Shown: positions 1-31,200 of the stretch, piece by piece
How the letters are laid out: each line of letters opens with the position of its first letter
Position numbering within the stretch: position 1 is the stretch's first letter
Source of the DNA: Phoronis australis
Taxonomy: Eukaryota > Animalia > Phoronida
DNA length: 64,000 nucleotides
Assembly: GCA_002633005.1 (NCBI GenBank)
Contig: NMRA01000139.1
Coordinates: 678,217-742,216, forward strand
Direction of reading: 5' to 3'
Notes under the pieces: model-generated
Database searches by the model: none
Seen by the model: the letters and a program-made list of their open reading frames with translations, nothing else
What the model was told of the DNA's origin: nothing
Position numbers and translations under genes: made by a program

Positions 1-13720
<13,720 letters not shown>

Positions 13721-16751: not shown

Positions 16752-18791
16752 CATCTAAACCACTCTCGGTACATGTATGTTTTGTGTATTGATATTTAAA
16801 GGCAGTGTTTTTTGTGGCAAAACCATATGAAGTATTGCAGCCACGTGCTATTTAACATAACGCAGTGAGGTATTAAATAAATGGACACCAGTCTTGAATA
16901 TATAGAAGCCACTTGACTTACAGTCGATGTGAAGATTGACTGTTCCATTAAGGTGAAACATCGAAGGTTTTACAAAATACGTGTATTACAGCCTATCGGG
17001 AGGCAGTTTCATCAGAATCCATGGAGATCTTCCAAGTAAATTTATACGTGCTGTCCTATTCCGTGGCTTATTTTTGACGACATTCCCTTGAAACCAGGCT
17101 GGATGACCAATCAAAGTCAAAATCGATAAGGGCCATTCACACCCTAGAGACAAATAATAAACGCGTTGCCTTCCCCTAACGACGTGGTCTAAGTGAACAG
17201 TAAGAACAACAGCTTACTGTAAAAGGTTTATTACAAATTCCAATAGCGGAAGACATAGTAACACAAGTGACCGTAACACTTCTTTCTCATCTGCAATATG
17301 ACGAAATGCCGGTAAACATGAAATTGAGAACATACGTTTGGGGACATCAAGTAATATAAGGGCTATGAGTTCCAGGTGACACCGAAAACATAGCCATGCA
17401 CGAGACTGACGGTACACCCCAAGTGATTTGAAAAAAAAACATGTGTTAGGTAATATAAAAGTATCGATAAAAAGTTCCATGCAAATAGCAAACAGTCATT
17501 GTAGCTAGAGTACGAAGATACCCTAAAATAGCTATTGTGCAGTTGGCGTGGTGGACTCATCAACATTATAAATGGACAGTATAGAGTAATTTTAACAAAC
17601 GATAAGTTAGATCTCGTACAAAGTTCGACATCAAGAAATACACGTATGAATATAATAATTTTACAAAGTAAACAAATCCTCTTTTCTCTGAAGCCTCCGA
17701 CCAGAATATCACATTTCATCTACTGATGTATGTGCAACAAGATAAATATGGTGAGGGTACAAATAAAAACAAATATTGGGCAATTACATATATTTCAATA
17801 TTGATCATGATTCATCTAAGTGTCAATCATACTGGTAATGACGGAAAGGAGCGTGCACCTCACATTTGCTTCCCAGTGGGGCAAAATGACTTCAAACTGC
17901 GCCTGTGGCCTGCACTACCAAGTTCCTCTGGAAGACATGCGTCAAAAATAAAACTTGCGCCAAATAAAATGTAGCATGTTTAGCTTGCGCCCACCATTGG
18001 TGCACATGTAGAGAAAATATGATATAACTTTGATGTAACTTCCCCTTTGGTATTGTTTTACAAAGTGTACCATAAAGAAGGCCGAATGAAATACAAAAAT
18101 TGCACGGAAGCTAAAAAAATAACATAATGCGCCTATAAAGTCTGCATGTCTAGCGACATTCGGTTAGCAATACAGCAATACTACCCACGAAGCTAAATAG
18201 TTTAGATTAAAAGGATAGTAAGCTGCAGCCTGGTAATTGCATGTAAATTTCCTACATTATTTGATATTGTGTAAAAAGAACTTCATCTGGGACGATGAAA
18301 GCAATGTTGTGTTAAAACGCTGTGTCACAAATGTGTTCGGTGGTTCAGAGTGCGTAACGCCTCCACACAGTCATCAAACTCACCCAAAGCCTTAGTCAGC
18401 AATGTGGATTCATCATATTTTGAAAAAAAATTTCACGGATTGGTGAATGCCTAGAAAGCATTGACTTGCTTTATAAATTAAAGCGATAAGTCTGCTAATA
18501 ACCAAATTACGACTGTATTATCCTTTTATCAAACCAGTGCATTGTCTTAAAATCGCATGTGCATGAACACGGAACCAATATCCGGTCCAAAAATCACTCG
18601 CAAACTGTCACGGGAGTCGAGCTAAACTTCAAGAGCACATTATCGTGGAAAAAAGGAGCTACTCTTAAATTCCCCGTCTCCAGGCTACCTAGCACGCGTG
18701 CATTGAGTGACCGCTGTAAGACGTTATCCAGACCAATTGCAGTATTGCAAAAGGGACCATTTCCTGGCAGAAACCCCAATCCGACAACAAC

Positions 18792-19250
18792 TCACATGAA
18801 TATAGTAGGCGCGGAGAACAAAATGGCGCTAGAGCTTACTATACACAGGATAGCGAAAATGACAAACAGGTAGCGGTCAACAACGGCAGCGGCAAACTTC
18901 CAGTCTTCAGTGATGGCATCGGCTTCGTCACTCTCTTTCATGTGCTCGGTAATGGTGCGAAGCTCACGCAAGATAGATCGCAACTCGTAATTTCCGGGGA
19001 TGGAATTGTGATTGTCCGAGTCATGTTTCATGCTTGTATAGTGGCCATTCATGTGGTTCGTCATCATCACCCCACTTTCATCGTCATCGTCCATGACGTT
19101 GGCAAGGAGGCTCTTGGGGTGCTTCTCAGACAGCTCTATGTCCGTTTCCTGTTCTCGCCCACTGCGAAGGATCCCTTTGTGTGAAAGGTCGTGGCCCGGC
19201 CTTTTCATGCAAATTAGCCAAGCTGCCCACTCACATATACCCCGCTTGAC
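18792..19250 (-). CDS. Gene B last exon: intracellular loop, MA helix and M4 (...KSLLANV...ILRELRTIT...[38 protein letters not shown])
   Basis: Lies within ORF 18792..19271. tctctcttcaAG acceptor. KSLLANV and WKFAAxVVDR are typical of invertebrate alpha7-group subunits. Confidence 0.95.
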   Translation of the reverse strand, partial: VKRGICEWAAWLICMKRPGHDLSHKGILRSGREQETDIELSEKHPKSLLANVMDDDDESGVMMTNHMNGHYTSMKHDSDNHNSIPGNYELRSILRELRTITEHMKESDEADAITEDWKFAAAVVDRYLFVIFAILCIVSSSAILFSAPTIFM

Positions 19251-22200
19251 CTTGAAGAGAGATCGATTCAACTAATGAACGAGGTAGATGACTTTATAAG
19301 GTGCACACTACGCAAGACTATTACACATCATTCCTTTGCATCCTACCATTGGCGGAGTTCAAATGTAATATGAAAGTTTTTACGTCTTAAGCAGAAGCCC
19401 GGCTTTTCTGTTAAGTGTTTGGGAAATATAGCAATCTGGTCTTCTTGAAAGTTAGTTGAACCTTCTCCAGACAAAGTGTGGTAGCGACCGCTTCACGGTA
19501 CAGTGACTAGGTTTTTACCACAACTTAAGCAGAGCATCCAGGTAAGTTCGCACATTCATACAACATTTGGACAACAAAATTTCGTCCACAAATAGGCTAA
19601 TCATTATCACTGAATGTAAAATTTCGACAGAAAATGACTTAACGGGGCTTAAACATTCTAAAAACCAGACTAAGTGTGGAAAAAAAATTCGAATGGAAAA
19701 CAAGTCGCAGTAAAAACCAACAACGGCGTCAATACTGCACATATAGAGGAGGCTCACTCACCCATCTCGGCATATCGTGGGTGGAAGACGAACGGTGGTG
19801 GTAGCTGAGTACCCAGACGGTAAAGATGACAGATGCGGCACACAGCATCATGACGATACCGAAGTATATGGCTGGAAATAATGTACCCAATGCTACATAC
19901 CTGGGATTAAGTGAAGATTATTTAAAACTTATCTAATTCTTTGCATACTCAATGTGGCTGTACAAGAGATTTTAAAGTCGATATCGTCGTCAAAACAGAC
20001 TCCCTCTAGTCTCACCCAGCACGTGCGTAGTAATGAACAGCTAATTGAACTGCGTTAAGAAATTACTGCTATGCTACAGTATCGACAGGTTCGCGCATGT
20101 GTTCATCAGCAATCTAAGTTGTTTCCGAATAAAAACTAGTAAGAGTGGTTGCTTCACTCGTAAGGCATAGCTATACCCGACGAAGACATCGACGATTTGA
20201 CGTTATGACGCCCATCTGGGAGAACTGCACGACCCACAAGTGACCTGTGTACGCTTTATCCACACAGACAACAACGTGGTACATTAGTAGAGCAACAAGA
20301 CATGTATTTTCCCAAGTGCGCTCAAGGTCTCGACAAAAATACGACATAGGCCAATTTTGGCAAGTGTATCGTCTCTTAGCTTGGAGAAGCATGTTATATT
20401 CGCTATTCACGTTTTTACACGAAATTTTCAAATCTTAGAACACACTTTAACCTTCAAACTTACCAAGAAGAGGAACGGCGTCTGAGGTAGATGGCAGCTG
20501 CTCCGCCACCATTAACAGGAACACAGTCAGCGACAGAAGAATAGTGACGGCTAAACAGTTTAGGATAATGAGACGTGGATTAACTTACACGAATAAAGAT
20601 ACATTTTATATAACACTAACCAATTGGTTCGTGGATATTATGCCCACAATATTCATTTATAAAAGAGTCTCAAATATACCTTTTATTAATACGCGTCTTC
20701 TTGAATAACAAAAGAAAATGCAATCATCTCAAGTTCGTAGAGCAAAAATATCAGAACTTAGTTGAAGATTGAGTCTGATAATGGATATTGGACTGGTGTT
20801 TCCGAAGTCAAATTTCAGGACCTGGGTACAGTGTATTTCCAAGCTTGAATTCCAATTTATATTTGACATCTTCAGTTATACGCTAGTACAAAATTGAGAC
20901 ACGTACTTTTCCAAGTTTGATGTCAAGTAACTCATTGTTTAAGTGGATGAGTGTGCTAATAAACATTGAGTTCCTCGGCATAGAAGCTACATGTTCGAAT
21001 CGGAATACAAGGAATTGAGAGTGAACACTGCCATTCATCTTAAATTTAGGGACTATAATATTCGAAATTAGACAAGAAACTTATATGCCTAAAACACAGC
21101 CATGGGCACGTCTCCTACGTCCGTAGTAAGGCAGAACAAATTATTAACAGTAATGTTAATCTCGAGTTAGCATGCAAAACCTCGGTGCCTGTTCTTGTCA
21201 CTTAGTTCTTTATTAATAATCAATATAAAGGCTGCGAACATTAAAACATTTGTGTATAACTAATTCTATCTAAACAGGTTAGTTCTATCACAGCTTAAAA
21301 ACTGGTTAGCTGCAGGAAGATTTGACATAGACTTGCAGTTGGGAGTGCATGCAGGTCGAGTAAACACCCAGTTGGTGAGAAGGAGGGGGAATTAATGATG
21401 TCTTCCCGAAAAGACCATGCACTTCCTGACAAAGTATTATCGAACTTGACAAAAGATCAACTTAGAGAAGGATGCCATATTGTTCATCGCCTTCAGTTCC
21501 TTCAGTCAAAGTGTTAGACATTATTAGACTTTTGCACCTATTCTAACGTCTCTGTGTATTTGTTAACGCAGGTAAGATTTACTCAACAATAGCCCGTATC
21601 TATTAATTAACCTGAACACGGCATGTCCGCGATTATGAGAGTGCATTCACTAACGTTGGTTTTTCACAACCAGCGAGTTCATGAGGACGGGATTGGCACG
21701 AAGTCGCCAAATTTGCATGACACTCTAGAACCTTATGGAACACGGTCCAAGGTAATTAAACGTAGAGCGCCGATCAAGTAGCGGGTTCAATGGTTAAAAA
21801 TACTACACATTCGCTAACATCAAGGTGGTTGGTGTTAGTAGTTTTATCGGAAGACATTTGCTTCCTTCAGGGGTTGGAGAAATTGCAAGACAACAGAAAA
21901 CGTCGCAATAGAGCAGTTACTGCGACTTTACGTTTTACCTACCCAACAATATCTTCTCGCCCGTGCATACGGGCATCAGAAAGAGTAGCATAACCATGGA
22001 GATTATTAATAAAGTGGGGGCGATTAAATTGATGATGAAATATAACATCCTTCGTCGTAAAATGATTTTGAACTTTATGTCAATGTAAGGTTGGGGACAA
22101 AACAAGTGTACAACTCGACATTTCTTTTGGCGGGAACTCCTAGAAAGAGAAAGGAGCGGTTCTCACACGGGTGCAAGGCAAGTTGTGATGTGGAATGTCA

Positions 22201-25200
22201 AATTTTGTTACCTAGTTGTTCAAAAAGGTCTTGTATATAGAGTCTTATAGCTCCTCATGTTCAATGCAGGTCATTTTGAACAGTTTTGTTTGGAATAAAA
22301 AAAAACAAAAAAAACAGTGCAGGTGGTCTGATGTCATTTGCGGTGCATCAGACGTGCGCAGGCCTCATGGTTGGGCCCATTGCACAAAAAACCTGAGCAA
22401 AGGCACGAGACCCCAATTATGGCTCCTCGTGAAGAAAGTTTTCAAGTCTGCCAGTCTCTTTTAGGAAAACGGACAGACGTTTCCATTTGTTTTGTTTGGA
22501 ATACTTTCGTAAGCTTTTAATGTAAATGGATGTGAAACGCGGACTTTTTTGATAACCAGGTAGCAAAATGCCTTTGCTGACAGCGACTGGTCTTACCAAG
22601 CCATCGTAGTCAGCGACGATGCTATCAACAAAGAAAATGAAACAAAAGCGGCCGCACACGGAAGGTCAAAACAGATAGCTGAAAGAAGTGAAAACACACG
22701 TGTTATTTCTAGGTGTTGCCGGAAATGTGCAAAATAAAATGATTACTAACGACATGGTGCCTGTTGTTAGTGTGATTCGATTTAGTTTCAGGTGCTCAAA
22801 GTGGTTAGCCGATAGATAAACGTGTCATATTGTGCAAGCGGATATATGCTATTATCCTGACACCATCAATTGACCTACCAAACGATATTTTCTCGCCTGC
22901 GTCTGGCGGGATCGTGAACGTGATGATTGTGAGTAGTGAGAGCAAAACTGCTGGTACGATCAGATTGACCAAAAAGTACAGGGTTCTTCGCAATAAAACA
23001 AACTTAAATTTCAAGTCGATGTACGGGGCATCCGGACAGCACTCGTAAAACTCTACATTTCGATACGCCGGCATCTCTAAAAGGAAACAAATTAGTACAA
23101 AGCAATGTAGTGGTTTTCGAACACAACAACGTGCAGGAGATGCAAAGTCATGCATCACAAGGTTAACGCAAGAACAGCTGCGGTATTACAACGCTAGAAA
23201 AACAACACAACCGTATCACCTACCAAATGATATTTTTTCGCCCGCGTCAGGGGGAATAGCAAAAGTTATCAGTGTCAGCAAGGACAACAGTAACGCCGGT
23301 ATGATGAGGTTTACCATGTAATATAATTTTCTCCGAAGTAAAACAAATTTGAATTTCAAGTCGATGTAGGGCGCATCGGGACAACATTCATAGAGTTCGA
23401 CGTAACGTCGCGCTGGCATGTCTAAAAGAAAAGTTAATGGAGATGATTACAATGTACGTGGGCACACACGTGATCACACGAACGTGTGTATGCGTATGTG
23501 AGTGCGTGTGTGCATGACGTCAGAAATTGTGTACACAAGGTGGGCACTGCAAACTGCTGCGTGAAGAATGTCTACCAAAGTGCCACATCGGTTGAGTGCG
23601 CACGCAGTGAAGAAACCTACCAAAAGAGATTTTCTCGCCAGCATCAGGCGGTATAGAAAAAGTAATCAGGGTCAACAATGACAGCAAAACTGCCGGGACA
23701 ATCAAGTTGACCAAATAATAGAGTTTTCGCCGCAGAAGAACGAATTTGTACTTCAGGTCGATGTATGGTGCGTCGGGACAACATTCGTAAAATTCCACGT
23801 TACGATGGACAGGCATTTCTAAAAGTAAATCATATTAAACGTTTTACGTAATTCCGTAGATGGAAATGTTGTAAGTTTATATTGGAATATTTTGTTTATG
23901 GGACCAATCAAGTAGGTCACTGCGGAATAAGATGGAGTCAAATTTCAGAGCCCCATGGACTAAGCGAAATATGTCTCTAAGAGAAACCGTGGTTGTTCAA
24001 CGACAATGACTCACAGAGAGGTCTAACTTATGGAATTCGTCATCTAAAGTAACTAGATGTCCAACATATTTGTTAACACTTCTCCTCAAACAATCTCTAC
24101 AAGACACAAGTTAGCGAAGAACTCACCCAGTAAGTCCCATTCGCCGTTGGGGGTGTAGGACGCGAGGTCGGCGCTATCCGACTTCAGTCGCAAATCAAGC
24201 TTGGTACCATCATACGTCCATGAACCAAACTTCATTATGCATTCTTGTTTATCAAAAGGAAACCACGTGATGTCGATTTTGCACGTGGATCTAAACATGC
24301 CGGGTGGGATGTAAGATGTTGATCCGTCGTTGTAGACAATGACGTTCGTTTGATAAGTGCTGTCAAAACTGTCGTCGGCACTGTAAGATAGAAAGATTTG
24401 CTGATTGAACGATTTCTTCAAGGTGACATGAGCCACCAACGCTAAATTTCTCGCTGGTGCCTCACCGTGGTCATTAAGACATAAGATTGGTGTCGTTTCA
24501 GGGAGCATGCNAGGGCACAGGAATAACCAGAATTTGGCCAAATGCGCGCGCCCAATCTAAAACGTAGGGATGTAGGGGTCTCTATTTTTTGGGTTGGTCG
24601 ACCTTATTACTAAAAACACGGTAAACGGGGTTTGTTCAGTCAAGACCTATGCATTGTACATTCGCCACCCAAGCTCCTTGGGTGCGCGCATATGCTAGTC
24701 AGCAATTCGCACCCCGAACTGCCAAATGGCATCTGGGAGAATTTTAGATGGGGGCCATGACCCCCTTAGACCCCCCTAAATCCGCCACTGGCATGTTGAA
24801 AACAGAGCCACAAACAAAACATGAATTCCCTGCACGCTTAATGTTTCTACCTTCAATGGGTGTATACTTTGCATCTTATCTAATGTTCTCTTAATTGAGG
24901 TCGACAGTTCACACTAATAGAGCAAATAACGTTCTGCAACTATTACCACGTTACAAGTGCGGATCCATGATCATGGCCAGATGGGACCTAACATTACATG
25001 TAAGCTCCATTTCTAAGCCTATTCCTTCATTTCGGCTATACGGAAGAGGACAAGTGGGAGATCAGGATTTTCTGGACCACACTTAGCACCTGTGCTTCCC
25101 TTGATCAACACAGTTCATATTAAGATAGTGTGTAGCTCAGGCTCATACGGGATTACTCAAGAAAATGCGCATGTAACGTACGGCTAGCATTCGCTCGTGT

Positions 25201-28200
25201 GCATGCGCAGAAGTACTATCATATTAAGTAAGTCAAGAATGAATACAATCTCCACAACGGACAAGAGGCATGGCAGCGATTTCCGGTACTTACTACTGAG
25301 GATGTCATGAAGCGAGGCACAGACAGTGAACTTTAGGAAACAATCTGTTTATTTTGGAGATTACGACGACTTTTCAACAAATGCATGGATTTTTATAGCA
25401 CGTAATATGCATATGTCCGAAGCTTCAATTTTAGAGTGTCATGTTGGATTTTTCCTAGAAGTTCACCAACCAGCAATTGTCCAGCTTATGTCCCGCCCCT
25501 CAGCTCTTGCCCAGCCCCTCAATGTGACTTCAATTACGATCGTACCTGTTGTACATAAGAACGTCCGGCATCCACAAATACTTTGGGTGAATTCTAACAT
25601 TGCTCACGTTACCATAATCGCTTGGGTTCCACACCAAGTTTCTGTCTTTCCAGGACTGCAAATGAAAGAAGCAAATTTGTCTGGTTTTGTCGGAAGTTAA
25701 CTCTTTGACATCGTTACGCAGTAACATGGTTTGTACAGCCGCCATTTTATACAAAATTAAATGTATAACTTTTTACTAGAATAAACATTCACATTATGAG
25801 ATTTCCATTGCATTGTTATGCAGTGCACAAGCTCGAAATTGCACGGAATATTTTAATTCATAGCGTTACCTTTGCCAATGTCAAATTAACATCCCGTTGT
25901 TACAATACATGTTCAATTTCAGTAAAAGAAACAAATAACAAATACTTACATAATCTAACCAGCAGTTCGAGGTTATGATTTGGTTTTTCTCGTCCTGTAA
26001 AACATAGTTTTTGTTTAATTATTCATTTAAACTCATTATGAGTCTGGACAAGCATCCAGCGAATCTGTTGATAAGGAAGTTGGCCTTATTTGCCAGTAAG
26101 AAACATCTACTCCAAGTTAAAGTACTTAGCATATTAACAGTATGTCAATTTAAAGTGCATAACATACTAAGGGAATTGACACACAAACACAGTAATACAA
26201 AGGCCTGTTCTTTTGAATACACATTACGCCGGAAAAATTAACGTACACGATAAAATGATACATTAAAAGCAGTACGTTATCACGCCATTCAGAAACAACT
26301 TTTTAGTAACCTGTTGGATTCATACGTGGCTGTCGAAGATCGCAGATGTTCAAATGCACTTGAAAACTGAATCATGCAACTAACCAAACAACCATAAATA
26401 TACTCGGGAACCCAATGGTCGTCCGCCTAAGCATAAAACCGACTTGCTGTTGTACTCACCGAATTATTCCACTTCAAAGTTATGATCTGAATAGGATTCG
26501 ATTTAACTCTCACAGATATACCGCATTCATCGATTCGGAAGTTTTCTTTAATTTGTGCCGAGTTATTTCAAATGTGCACTGCCTTCGGCAGCCATTTTAT
26601 TGTGACACCTAAGGTCGTCATATGCTGCCCCCTTTTGTAAAAACTGAGAAACATGCAGAAAAAGGCCAACGAAGTAATGAAAATTGCAACAGCCTGTTTT
26701 TATTGACATAAACTCGATTTGAAGCTTTGATGTTGAGCTCTGCACTGTGGTTTCCAATAAAAGCCAATTGGACAACATTTCAATGCAGTTTAATGGTGAA
26801 TGCGTGAGGCAAAAATGTTAAGAACCCAGCGTATCGCATTTGTCTGCGGATTTTTCCTTTGGCCTTCTAGATCCTACTAGTGCCTGGGACAAACAGATAC
26901 ATTGCATAAACAAACCCTGGATCATGTTTTGTGTCCCGTCGGAAGAAAATTTAAATTCGAAAATATCTTCTGAAAACGCACAAAAAAGTGTATTAGTAAA
27001 ATCTACTGATTTTTAAGTGGTTTTAAAAAACAATCGGTAAACTCACCGATTTTTGTCTCATTACTTTGATACGTGTCTCTTCCGATAAGTTAGTACCTAA
27101 CGTGCAGACGAGCACTCCAAATTGGAACGCTAAGTTCCGCGTGGTTGCGCTGCACGCGAAACAAGATGGCGGACGACCTTTGGAGCCTGACGACAATAGG
27201 TAACCGGACTATACATTGGATTTGAGGAAACCCAACGTGATACGCTTTACGAAACATTTGTATTGACTACAATTTATTTCAATGGTAAAGAAAATACAAA
27301 ATATGGTATTATTAACAAGATATCAAATTAACATTATATTTGAACATTTTTAATTTACGCACGAAGGATGCCTAGGATCTGACCAATTGGAGTTTATAAC
27401 CTTCTAATTTGGAAGGCATTGGTACAAGAAGCATATATGCCTGTGCTGCCAAAATAATGTCTTGAAAATCAATGAATACTTTCGGCATTACCGGAAGTTG
27501 ACCTCAGATATTTAATCTTTTCACCGCTACCTACACGAGCCGGCCTGGCGGTCATTCCCTAAGCCCGAGAACCTCATGAAAACGCGAGAGCATGCAATAT
27601 TATCATTAAGTACAAGCTTCATTCGAGAGAATCTTGCGTGTACGGAACTAGGCCCAGTTCTTACTATTAGTTCTGAAGGTCAGTACAAAGCCATGCCTAT
27701 ACTAGCTTGAGAACTTTTCTGCGAAATGTTCTGTGGATTACGCAATAATATCTCCAAAATTTATTTATTGTTGCCATGGTTTAACAATTGTCAATGTAAT
27801 TATGTGTTATACTTGAACTTTATGTGTGTCTGTCTAGACTATCTGCGTAAAGACAATTGTGAATGCACATCATACTAGTGTATGGAACACTTGGTTGCGG
27901 AATGGAAGCAGCAAATTTCGTTTCACACTTCAAAATTTCAGCCTTGTCAACTTAATCATTTTTGGGAGGACAGTTTGCTAGTTAATACTTTCTAAAGTTT
28001 TGCTCAAACGTTTTTGAGCCAGGGCTGTTTCTCATTAAAATGGGCTAAAACTGGGTTGACTAAGTATTGTATTCACATAAAGACTATGGGTGGTATGTGA
28101 ATGCTTCTTGAAACTCATTTGATTGAAAGAAGGCATTTTTGTACCCTTTTACAGTTTCTGTCCTTTATTACGCCTTTACTGCAATTAATTTGGACTTGAA

Positions 28201-31200
28201 AACGATAATTAAATTGAAACTTAGGTGCCGTTCTGACACTTCGGATTTTCAAAAACCTGCCTTAATCGCACCTACACGCAATGTTTACTATGTTTTATGA
28301 TGTATTAGATTGTTGGCTTTTGAGTGAAAATTCAAAAGATGTAAAAGTCACATTGGATTCAATTTCGTTTAATTTTGTGCAAGGATTTGGAAGTATTTAG
28401 TCCGGCATATACTTCATATTTTCATTGTCAGCCTATACCTAGCGGTAAAAACTTTTGGCACAGAATGGGCGTGGTTTGTCAAACCCAAAAACAACGGCAA
28501 AACTGTGCTGTCTGAGGTCACGAGCATATTCCGGTGATAGAATTTGGAAGGTGTTGTGACATCGCGCATTTGTCAAAAGAAACTGACTTGCTCTACTGAA
28601 CACAGCCCAGACTTAGTTAAAAACAAGAACTGCAACGTTGATTCAGTTTCCAACGAGTTTTATTTAGCGAGGCTACCGACTAAGATATTTTGCCAGGTAC
28701 TGTATTGCATTGTAATTTTACCTTTGTTCATAAAAGTGGTTTTCTAGTTAAGGAATTTTTACCATAAACAATTTGTTTATTTCTTCAACTCGAACGATTC
28801 TCACCACGTCGATAAGATCTTGCAGGGTAAGGCCCATAGTAACGACTATTGGCTGGTTCTCATCTTCAACAGGCCTCTCTAGTCCTTGGTAGCCATTCAT
28901 CAGCCAGTTAATTAATCTCTTTTCGTGTTCACCTTGGTGGGAATCTGCAAGTACAGACAAGAGAATTTGAGAGCCAATTGCAAACGTGTGTGTGGTTTTC
29001 AGGCAATTGCTACCTACAAAAATCAGTTGCACGGCGGAGAGATGCCGTTTTTTGAACAAATCAAATACACGGAAGTCACGCATTCCAGAGACACCAGGAA
29101 TGTTGATGTCACAAGCATATAACCCAATCCCATTGCTTTGTCAGTCTGTCATGGCGCTTGCTATCGATGTTGCCTGTCGGTGCTTATTTGTAAAGTACAT
29201 CCCTGTGGGCATTTCCAAAAGATGTCTTGTCCATTACACCATGGCCTGAGGTAAATGCATGGAGACATAGCAGGTGAACGTCCGCATTGCAGCATTTCCA
29301 TTAATTGCGTACTGCAAACGCACGAAGAGGGGAAACTTAGACTGATAAATTGAACAATATGTAATTTTGATCGAGATTAAATCAATTTAAGTTGGAGATT
29401 TCGGCTAACCTTGAGAGCGAACAGGGGTTGTCAGATGAGATATAAGAGTGAAGGCTATTTTTTAAAAACCTATGATAATTATTTTCAATTTGTTTTTTTT
29501 ATTGTGGATTAAAAACAATGAAACTTTTCTTGAAACTCTAATTGGGGACTTGTTTAAAACATTTTGGATGCTGCGCCCGATCTGGCTAGAAAATATCAGG
29601 TCTCGTGTGCAGGAATGTCGCACTGTATTTGTGTGCAAGTCTAAACTGCTTTGCCGATTCTCATCCCTATAATTCTCATATTTCATTTGGCAGTTCGGGG
29701 GTGCGAATGTATGACGGCAAAATCCTGGCTGATACCCTGCACTGCCCCCCCCCCTCCCCTAACTCAAAATCCTGGATCCTTCCCTGGTAACAGGCTAACT
29801 TTCGGTTTTAACCCAAAAGTCTTTCCCTGGAATGCCAACTTCTATCTTGCGCTGCTGAGGTTGCGCCGCGCATGCTTGGCATGTGTTTGCATTCGTTTGT
29901 TCACTCAGTGGAGCACACAGCTGGAAATTCACAGTGCACTCACGCTAGTCTCGGGGTCGCAAGCTCTAATAAAAGTATACACAGGTCATATGTGGCAGTT
30001 GCGTTCCAGGGTTAGAATTCTATGGGTTTAGCATGATCGATTTCAGTCTAACTTACTTTTAATCTTCACATATTACTTGAAACTGGGATAACACATTTTG
30101 GTCTTAAGTTAACCCTAGTTCGATCTGACTTGAGCTAGAAAAAGAATTCATGGAACGGGCCCTAGAGTGGCTAGTCGAATGTGTTTTCACGCATTCTCCC
30201 AAAGCATGCTCTTGGGGCGCTAGTTTAACTCCAGGCACTTCCAGAACTACCGATTTCAAGTTTTTACTCTATTCCATATCTAAACCATTTGATTAGGTCT
30301 TACGCCGATAGCATGAACAGCTCTCTAGTATCCGTTGATCGATGTTAACTCGGACGATTTAATCTACATGTACATGTACATAAATTGTGGTTATTGCATA
30401 CAGTCTCAGCTATCCCGTTTGTTTCATCGAAGTCAAACAAGTTTTCCCGTGCCTTTTTCTCTACGTTGTGCAGCATTTTAGCTCGAAATGTCCCGTGTGA
30501 AGTGAAATGTTAGCTCTGAGCACGTGATTTTCAAGTTCGAGTAGACGCCATGATCAAAAAGACTTAAATGAAGTCGGTGGTCGACCTCTCTAGATTTCCG
30601 ATTGGTTTTGGAATTGCGTTCTGGCAGGACGTCGGTTTTCCTGAAAAATGGCGCACGTCCTGGCGAGACATTGCCATGCGTAAGCAATCAAAATAGAGGA
30701 TTTTCAAGATAGCCTCAATATATCAAAATTAACTACCTCGCCACAAAAATGGCGATTTGGTGTTTGGGTGGCACTGAATAGTTAGGTTGTGGCCGCGGTT
30801 AATTTGCACTCCCAAAATGTTAAAATCTAGGGCTAGGCCAGGCTTGGGGGCATTTTTTAGCTAGGTATTGTGTGTAGGCCAAGTGAATGTTTTTTTTTTT
30901 GTATTTGTGAACATGCTGGGAATGAAAAAAGGCCAGTTTCTTGGCTGTAACTGCACTCTTCTTCAAGATGGTGGCCCCCTGTTGCAGTTGTGCATTGCTG
31001 TGTAGCAACTGAGAAATTGGCCGCGATTTCAGGTAGCCCTCAAACAAGCCAGATTTGCAAAAAAACTATTTGGTTGACAGTACTTTTGGATCACATTTTT
31101 GGAATCGGTAGGAAATTTGCTTTCGGAATCTAATGTTGGCTTTAGTCGAGCATCGACAGGAAAGTGGTGATTTTTGGGGTGAAAAGTGCCAATTTTGCAT

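Follow-up and report, generated by a model that had tools for sequence, protein, structure and literature searches.

This study concerns a stretch of 64,000 nucleotides of the genome of Phoronis australis (contig NMRA01000139.1, positions 678,217 to 742,216 of the forward strand, assembly GCA_002633005.1), called the window below, in which all positions are counted. On its minus strand lies a gene, here called gene B, that encodes a Cys-loop, vicinal cysteines in loop C, four transmembrane helices (M1 to M4) and a GEK motif before M2. Judged by these features, gene B is an alpha7-like nicotinic acetylcholine receptor gene, its gating by acetylcholine being a prediction only. We found that the exon encoding loop C and M1 is present in gene B as three intact copies (7a, 7b and 7c) and one frameshifted copy (7d), all within one gene. 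From the evidence given below, we infer that one intact copy is probably chosen for each mRNA.

An initial annotation of the window had described this array as a four-way cassette. Four homologous exons, all bounded by AG at the acceptor and GTAGGT at the donor, indeed lie between a single Cys-loop exon and a single M2 exon. However, 7d is frameshifted, and only three copies are intact. That is, the array is a three-way cassette plus one broken copy. The features of this region are as follows.

24127..24380, minus strand: Cys-loop exon, common upstream flank (254 nt; RNA joint 24127 to 23818, 3 reads in run X7)
23819..23919, minus strand: AG-free zone preceding 7a (99 nt; branch-point-like motifs at -90 and -17)
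23621..23818, minus strand: exon 7a, intact (198 nt; encodes beta9, loop C, beta10, M1 and the GEK filter; joined in RNA to the exon upstream)
23422..23546, minus strand: AG-free zone preceding 7b (123 nt; partly a CA/GT-rich tract; motifs at -99 and -13)
23224..23421, minus strand: exon 7b, intact (198 nt; depth zero in X7, one read's worth in X6)
23077..23177, minus strand: AG-free zone preceding 7c (99 nt; motif at -87; TACTAAT at -16)
22879..23076, minus strand: exon 7c, intact (198 nt; RNA joint 22879 to 20550, 4 reads in X7)
22296..22491, no strand assigned: high-copy dispersed repeat in the 7c-7d intron, outside the cassette
21943..22139, minus strand: exon 7d, likely pseudo-exon (197 nt; frameshift at the vicinal cysteines; splice sites intact)
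20464..20550, minus strand: M2 exon, common downstream flank (87 nt, single copy)

Sequence of the three intact exons

Exons 7a, 7b and 7c are each 198 nt long, of phase 1-1 and open. The equal length and phase of a cassette cluster are thus found in 7a-c and not in 7d (197 nt), so that the earlier assignment of phase 1-1 to all four exons stands for the first three only. In the same way, the motif YECCPDAPY, described as invariant, is kept in 7a-c and not in 7d. When spliced by coordinates, an isoform with 7a, 7b or 7c has a full frame of 466 codons from the second exon to the stop. A transcript with two copies (532 codons) is also open, and the frame is kept whether no copy, two or three are included.

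The residue differences are 7 between 7a and 7c, 9 plus the junction codon (E/D) between 7a and 7b, and 10 plus 1 between 7b and 7c; the counts of 7 (a/c) and 10 (a/b) of 66 residues given in the initial annotation agree with these once the junction codon is included. Each pair differs at 48-58 nucleotides (70-75% DNA identity), and 31-42 of these differences are at third positions, where many changes had been noticed before. Selection was measured as pN/pS, the ratio of the proportions of nonsynonymous and synonymous differences; the Jukes-Cantor synonymous distance (dS) is undefined because the silent sites are saturated. The values of pS were 0.76-0.95 and those of pN 0.07-0.10, giving a pN/pS of about 0.07-0.12, which is not near 1; for 7b it was about 0.11 against both 7a and 7c. 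Similarity among the cassette copies fades within about 10 nt of the exon edges, in agreement with the earlier remark that the introns are unalignable. In their sequences, 7a-c bear the marks of old duplicates under purifying selection, in accordance with the original proposal.

RNA and DNA reads across the cassette

Four DNA runs from one sample contain the stretch; one of them, X1, is a possible source of the assembly itself. The RNA runs X5, X6 and X7 are from samples other than the DNA sample. About 19% of each was examined, and splice joints are reported only at 3 or more reads, rarer joints falling below this threshold. Run X8 showed no depth on the exons of gene B.

One contig of X1 spans 22462-24470, which includes 7c, 7b, 7a and the Cys-loop exon, without any difference, and a second spans 19713-22326 without gaps. 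In X7, joints were found from the upstream exon to 7a (3 reads), from 7c to the M2 exon (4 reads) and from the M2 exon to the M3 exon (4 reads), while X5 and X6 were too shallow for any listed joint. The exon reads were all first mate on the plus strand, which fits minus-strand RNA in a stranded library. Two of these RNA joints tie 7a to the exon upstream and 7c to the M2 exon; the copies therefore belong to one gene, and at least 7a and 7c are used in spliced RNA. The possibility that only one copy is ever spliced in, raised in the initial annotation as a counter-case, is at variance with these two joints. It had also foreseen joints from 24127 to each acceptor and from each donor to 20550, and none between copies. 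Of these, 24127 to 7a and 7c to 20550 were seen, and no joint between copies reached 3 reads in X5-X7; the other flank joints were below threshold. A broader placement of reads over 11.6 kb was swamped by repeats, and no exon joint was among the matches listed (15 of 51).

We took exon depths from bin means in X7, which correspond to roughly ten reads per exon. The depth was 4.7-5.1 for 7a and 4.5 for 7c, as compared with 7.8, 9.1, 7.9-9.4 and 9.8 for four constitutive exons, a ratio of about 0.6, and the summed depth of 7a and 7c fits one constitutive exon. A Poisson comparison favoured a 50:50 exclusive choice 5-, 30- and 300-fold at 5.5, 7 and 9 expected reads per joint, respectively.

Several points weigh against exclusive use. 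The joints that would prove it, upstream exon to 7c and 7a to M2 exon, were not listed at 3 or more reads; each copy was seen with one flank only, and the two joints seen are equally expected from a transcript containing both 7a and 7c. The depth of the Cys-loop exon in X7 is at most 5.5, near those of 7a and 7c, and the Poisson comparison becomes neutral (0.8) at 4 expected reads per joint. In addition, the depth of 7b is zero in X7, and X6 holds about one read of it, the other half of which is not shown. Taking both sides together, we consider mutually exclusive use of 7a-c likely, with moderate support from the reads: both 7a and 7c are spliced, and the depth favours it.

The choice may be exclusive but effectively two-way (7a or 7c), 7b being rare or decaying like 7d and the isoforms being functionally near-equivalent. 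The zero depth of 7b in X7 agrees with such a view, as do the end branch of 7b, which is the longest (0.16 vs 0.06 and 0.09), and the fact that 7a and 7c differ at just 7 residues, several of them conservative, with the aromatic box and the GEK filter in common. Nevertheless, 7b is open, its splice sites are intact, it has the longest AG-free zone, and selection on it is as strong as the pN/pS given above. Moreover, its 96 bases of coverage in X6 end exactly at the 7b acceptor, so that one spliced read is implied, and the RNA scope is three samples with the stated fraction of each run. We regard the two-way form as unlikely.

Another explanation is that transcripts often, or even invariably, contain both 7a and 7c and encode the 532-codon product with a doubled loop C/M1, which would be non-functional, or dominant-negative or regulatory. 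The only cassette joints listed are the two that this explanation needs, double inclusion keeps the frame, and both copies are present in 51 of 393 fetched proteins, many of them RefSeq arthropod alpha7 models. A tick alpha6 transcript with exons 3a and 3b has been cloned and gave no current (PMC13578988; this and the other PMC articles are cited for the parts of their text that were available). On the other hand, a 7a-7c joint stayed below 3 reads, and 7a and 7c reach only about 0.6 of most constitutive depths. In the same sets of annotations the two M2 exons are likewise joined in a row (P0215, P0219, P0180, P0176), which suggests a habit of the gene modelling. A second beta9-beta10-M1 unit would, by the established architecture of ligand-gated ion channels of the pentameric class, invert the topology of M2, and loop C has been kept intact by selection in every one of these copies. 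Regular co-inclusion is, in our judgment, quite improbable.

That the copies come from separate collapsed genes or from an assembly artefact, as the tandem paralog (gene A) 8 kb away and the high-copy repeat splitting the DNA contigs between 7c and 7d might suggest, is scarcely credible and was already denied in the initial annotation, since the single contig across 7a-c shows no difference, RNA joins 7c to the M2 exon of gene B, the copies are just 70-75% identical in DNA, and the other exons are all single.

As a separate observation, coverage of the 7a bin (23431-23817) in X5 and X6 at 90% likeness vanishes at 94%. It may come from a divergent 7a allele or another paralog.

Splice signals and a proposed mechanism

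The AG-free zones before 7a, 7b and 7c are 99, 123 and 99 nt long, whereas those of the remaining 16 acceptors in genes A and B measure 14-63 nt; the zone is short at 7d (20 nt) and at the homologous exon of gene A (25 nt). Among 300 pyrimidine-rich background sites, which include the three cassette acceptors, 7 reached 99 nt, these three counted in. The donor GTAGGT was found at all four cassette donors and at none of the 13 other donors. Distant branch-point-like motifs are located at -90 (7a), -99 (7b) and -87 (7c), and the last of these is 61 nt from the 7b donor. AG-exclusion zones of at least 100 nt have been linked with distant branch points and alternative splicing (PMC1431707). According to the same article, repeats can mimic such zones, and this warning applies to the CA/GT-rich tract before 7b, for which a hairpin fold was obtained (z -2.2). 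The hairpin considered at the 7c acceptor scored no better than shuffles (z -0.2) and was rejected.

We propose that one intact copy of the exon would be spliced into each mRNA, exclusion being enforced at acceptors that lie behind long AG-free zones of the distant-branch-point type. Up to three subunits would result, with modest differences predicted in their gating or their sensitivity to ligands. Nonsense-mediated decay cannot enforce the choice among 7a-c, since exons of 198 nt keep the frame in whatever combination they are joined. Of the possible controls, regulated, slow acceptors with distant branch points seem to us the most probable, with about an even chance of being right. The AG-zone test was picked after the data had been seen, and this counts against the mechanism. 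So do the ordinary branch-point motifs that also lie near every acceptor, at -13 to -17, and the fact that a steric distance from a donor is approached only by the candidate motif of 7c. Furthermore, among the inverted-repeat pairs listed for 20464-24200 (25 of 69) there was no shared docking or selector element, and nine of ten folds were no better than shuffles.

In X7, intronic RNA at 1-2x was seen at 23860-24019 and 23077-23219, upstream of 7a and 7c, and at 19872-20463 in the M2-M3 intron. Such coverage would be expected if the acceptors with long AG-free zones are spliced slowly, but also from pre-mRNA of the ordinary kind.

Exon 7d

In alignment, exon 7d corresponds to an exon of 195 nt to which two bases are added near 22101, at the vicinal cysteines. 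Its reading stops 21 codons in, and a transcript spliced with 7d ends at codon 204. Its identity with 7a-c is about 47-51% over the aligned part, and it has the beta10 K-x-K pattern in common with them. An X1 contig with a depth of 43 covers 7d without gaps, so the frameshift is present in the reads, with the caveat that X1 may be the source of the assembly. In RNA, only a pair's worth of coverage was found (X5), and it runs on across the 7d donor. Two rescues were considered and rejected. With a GT 4 nt downstream, the internal stop remains; with an internal acceptor 26 nt in, the frame would be restored but beta9 deleted, as read from the sequence. We consider 7d likely to be a pseudo-exon.

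Layout of gene B and its tandem paralog

The remaining exons of gene B and the homologous exon of gene A are listed here.

28805..28944, minus strand: N-terminal helix exon of gene B (140 nt; signal-peptide exon upstream not located)
25950..25994, minus strand: loop D region exon (45 nt, single copy)
25546..25655, minus strand: exon ending in loop A (110 nt, single copy)
19762..19871, minus strand: M3 exon (110 nt; RNA joint 20464 to 19871, 4 reads)
18790..19250, minus strand: last coding exon (intracellular loop, M4, stop)
2568..2765, minus strand: homologous exon of gene A, single copy (control: 25-nt AG-free zone, GTGAGA donor)

The cassette is the sixth exon of gene B if one exon precedes 28944. 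A tblastn search inside gene B found no further copy of any exon; all exons outside the cassette, the two flanks included, are single, as the initial annotation had it for these flanks. Loose RNA read ends at 24384 match the 3' end of the 110-nt loop A exon. At the start of M2 (junction 20550-20549), all isoforms of gene B have Ala (GEKISF-A-VTILL) in place of the usual Gly, which gene A keeps. High-copy dispersed repeats lie in the introns of gene B at 22296-22491, 24512-24790, 26400-27213 and 29680-29940, and they are abundant in RNA on both strands.

Gene A (7-11002, minus strand) is a tandem paralog about 8 kb from gene B and extends past the edge of the window. Its exon layout is like that of gene B, with 74% identity outside the cassette exon, of which it has one copy. 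The introns of gene A and the long cassette introns of gene B showed no trace of another copy. The M2 of gene A is VTILLAYTVFMMVVSDS, with A and Y where alpha7-like proteins carry S and L.

Origin of the copies

When the cassette exon is left out of the tree, genes A and B come out as sisters (100/100) and are placed with alpha7-like proteins of annelids, nemerteans, brachiopods and gastropods (81/78, with few outgroups), a position from which the animal is probably a lophotrochozoan. In the exon tree, 7a-c form one clade (98/94), sister to the gene A exon (98/99), and a one-residue insertion in loop C is common to 7a-c and the gene A exon and absent from 7d. The tree and the insertion therefore point to a triplication after the split of genes A and B, or to later homogenisation, and to 7d as the older copy.

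Owenia, Capitella and Lineus have a copy, here called K-type, that carries K ahead of M1, L in the middle of M1 and, at the end, F or C. Over five diagnostic columns, matches to the K-type vs the canonical copy were 3 vs 2 for 7a and 7b, 2 vs 3 for 7c, and 0 vs 3 for 7d. The K-type copies fall on one side of a branch with 7a-c and the gene A exon, with a support of 26/85 (81/86 with 7d included). Approximately unbiased (AU) tests rejected no placement of 7d (p 0.43, 0.27), nor did they reject independent origins in Owenia or Lineus (p 0.10-0.43 across tests). We speculate, with more doubt than confidence, that an ancient lophotrochozoan switch between canonical and K-type copies was turned over in this lineage, the canonical copy (7d) being lost to a frameshift and the K-type copy triplicated, with distant branch points policing the choice. 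If so, gene B would encode three subunits capable of forming homomers, which differ in the flank of loop C (position 189 among its sites) and at a pre-M1 coupling residue, and the cassette would be the largest of this exon among the records fetched.

Predicted effect and significance

Aligned to the Torpedo alpha subunit, Y190, C192-C193, P194, P197, Y198, D200, R209, P221 and GEK are identical in 7a-c. The three copies vary in the beta9 flank, at 189 (F, L, F), at 203 and at 211 (K, K, T), and in outer M1. We take position 189 to be one that affects alpha-neurotoxin binding, and positions 209-211 to belong to the coupling region. We predict that the isoforms would be tuned modestly and that charge selectivity would be unchanged. 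The proposals of the initial annotation that the isoforms may differ in toxin sensitivity and may combine in mixed pentamers are conjectures.

These observations mean that a 66-residue module, running from the agonist loop through the coupling region and M1 to the charge filter, would be swapped as a unit in alpha7-like receptors of several phyla, by a cassette still able to expand and decay. Three natural isoforms with 7-11 residue differences on an identical background would offer a clean test of the loop C flank and pre-M1 region in gating. Models with the copies placed in series (51 of 393 fetched proteins) are probably in error, which matters for catalogues of invertebrate receptors. The kind of system has long been known from insect alpha6, and the surprise is moderate.

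Comparison with other animals and known systems

We scored the loop C + M1 unit in the 393 fetched proteins at a spacing of 55-75 residues, and this gave the 51 two-copy proteins mentioned above; in one protein search, two-copy models were 18 of 120. The spacing was exactly 65 in 19 listed two-copy models, from hemimetabolous insects of several orders, a barnacle, an isopod, two decapods, Owenia and Capitella. In the majority of arthropod alpha7 models the two copies follow one another in one protein, which speaks against one copy per mRNA. Such tandem models do not prove double inclusion, because some of them also string both M2 exons.

Among lophotrochozoans, the Owenia fusiformis pair CAH1797306.1/CAH1797307.1 is annotated with the same length and 20 differences, all within residues 240-302, and the Lineus longissimus pair XP_064652926.1/XP_064652968.1 with the same length and 24 differences, all within residues 207-270. 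Capitella CAPTEDRAFT_221893 carries both copies. The Owenia and Lineus pairs differ in the loop C + M1 exon only and have one copy per isoform, as is proposed for gene B, with which they share the weakly supported clade (81/78); such single-copy pairs count in favour of an exclusive choice. In Owenia, Lineus and Capitella, one copy has RRRKLY...GEK-x-x-F, resembling 7a, 7b and the gene A exon. In contrast, Owenia and Lineus have two copies with 20-24 residue differences, whereas gene B has three with 7-11. No paper on these isoform pairs was found; they are known as database annotations. Nemertean isoforms (Lineus P0290, P0344 and P0346; Tubulanus P0294 and P0349) also differ at residues 77-85 and 88-118, which suggests, from these sequences, that other exons (loop D, loop A), present once each in genes A and B, are alternative there too.

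In the full-text literature, whose coverage leaves subscription journals largely outside, no paper describing a loop C + M1 cassette in a lophotrochozoan was found. A term search of the available text of PMC6896357, PMC7221154, PMC11601503, PMC4647701, PMC13471630 and PMC9219234 showed no description of such a cassette; the "exon 7a/b/c" of the PMC9219234 supplements is most likely the Rdl triplication, as far as the accessible part goes. A word-based protein search with 7a alone, a weak method, gave no match.

In aphid alpha7, Dale et al. reported potential alternatively spliced exons 6 and 7, as cited in PMC4011867. In the aphid alpha7 models, exactly two adjacent exons are doubled, namely that for loop C and M1 and that for M2. 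The cassette is therefore very probably already in print for aphids, one of the exons of Dale et al., by our reading exon 6, very probably being the loop C + M1 exon. With this and the annotated Owenia and Lineus pairs, the remark in the initial annotation that no cassette was described for this exon can no longer be upheld. Alpha7-type models of aphid, cockroach, termite, locust, bug, barnacle, isopod and decapod contain the same 65-residue unit twice in tandem. These pancrustacean models have two copies, as compared with three and a pseudo-exon in gene B, and the arthropod copies do not group with 7a-c. In Amphibalanus (P0180, P0386, P0387, P0389) there are three versions of the M2 exon and in aphid (P0215, P0219) two, adjoining the doubled loop C + M1 exon.

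Insect alpha6, with exons 3a/3b and 8a/8b/8c, resembles gene B in having tandem homologous exons in a receptor of the alpha7 group; its mutual exclusion was established by cDNA sequencing, and its three copies are unequally used (PMC1919356, PMC8505678). Its alternative exons, however, encode loop D and M2 and have been kept for about 300 million years, whereas 7a-c look lineage-specific. Tandem alternative exons are also known in insect alpha4 (exons 4/4'), Bombyx alpha8 (exon 7 pair, TM2-TM3) and Rdl (exon 6a/6b) (PMC2045683, PMC12309072), but these concern other subunits and segments, and "exon 7" of Bombyx is not the loop C + M1 exon. In exons of the alpha-tropomyosin type, as in 7a-c, acceptors in alternative use are preceded by an AG-free stretch of about 100 nt or longer (PMC1431707); in 7a-c, however, the distant branch points are candidates, and near motifs are present as well. 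In conclusion, the cassette is not new in kind, and what is new here is its expansion to three. Specific to gene B are the lineage-specific triplication, the dead fourth copy and the long AG-free zones before the intact exons only.

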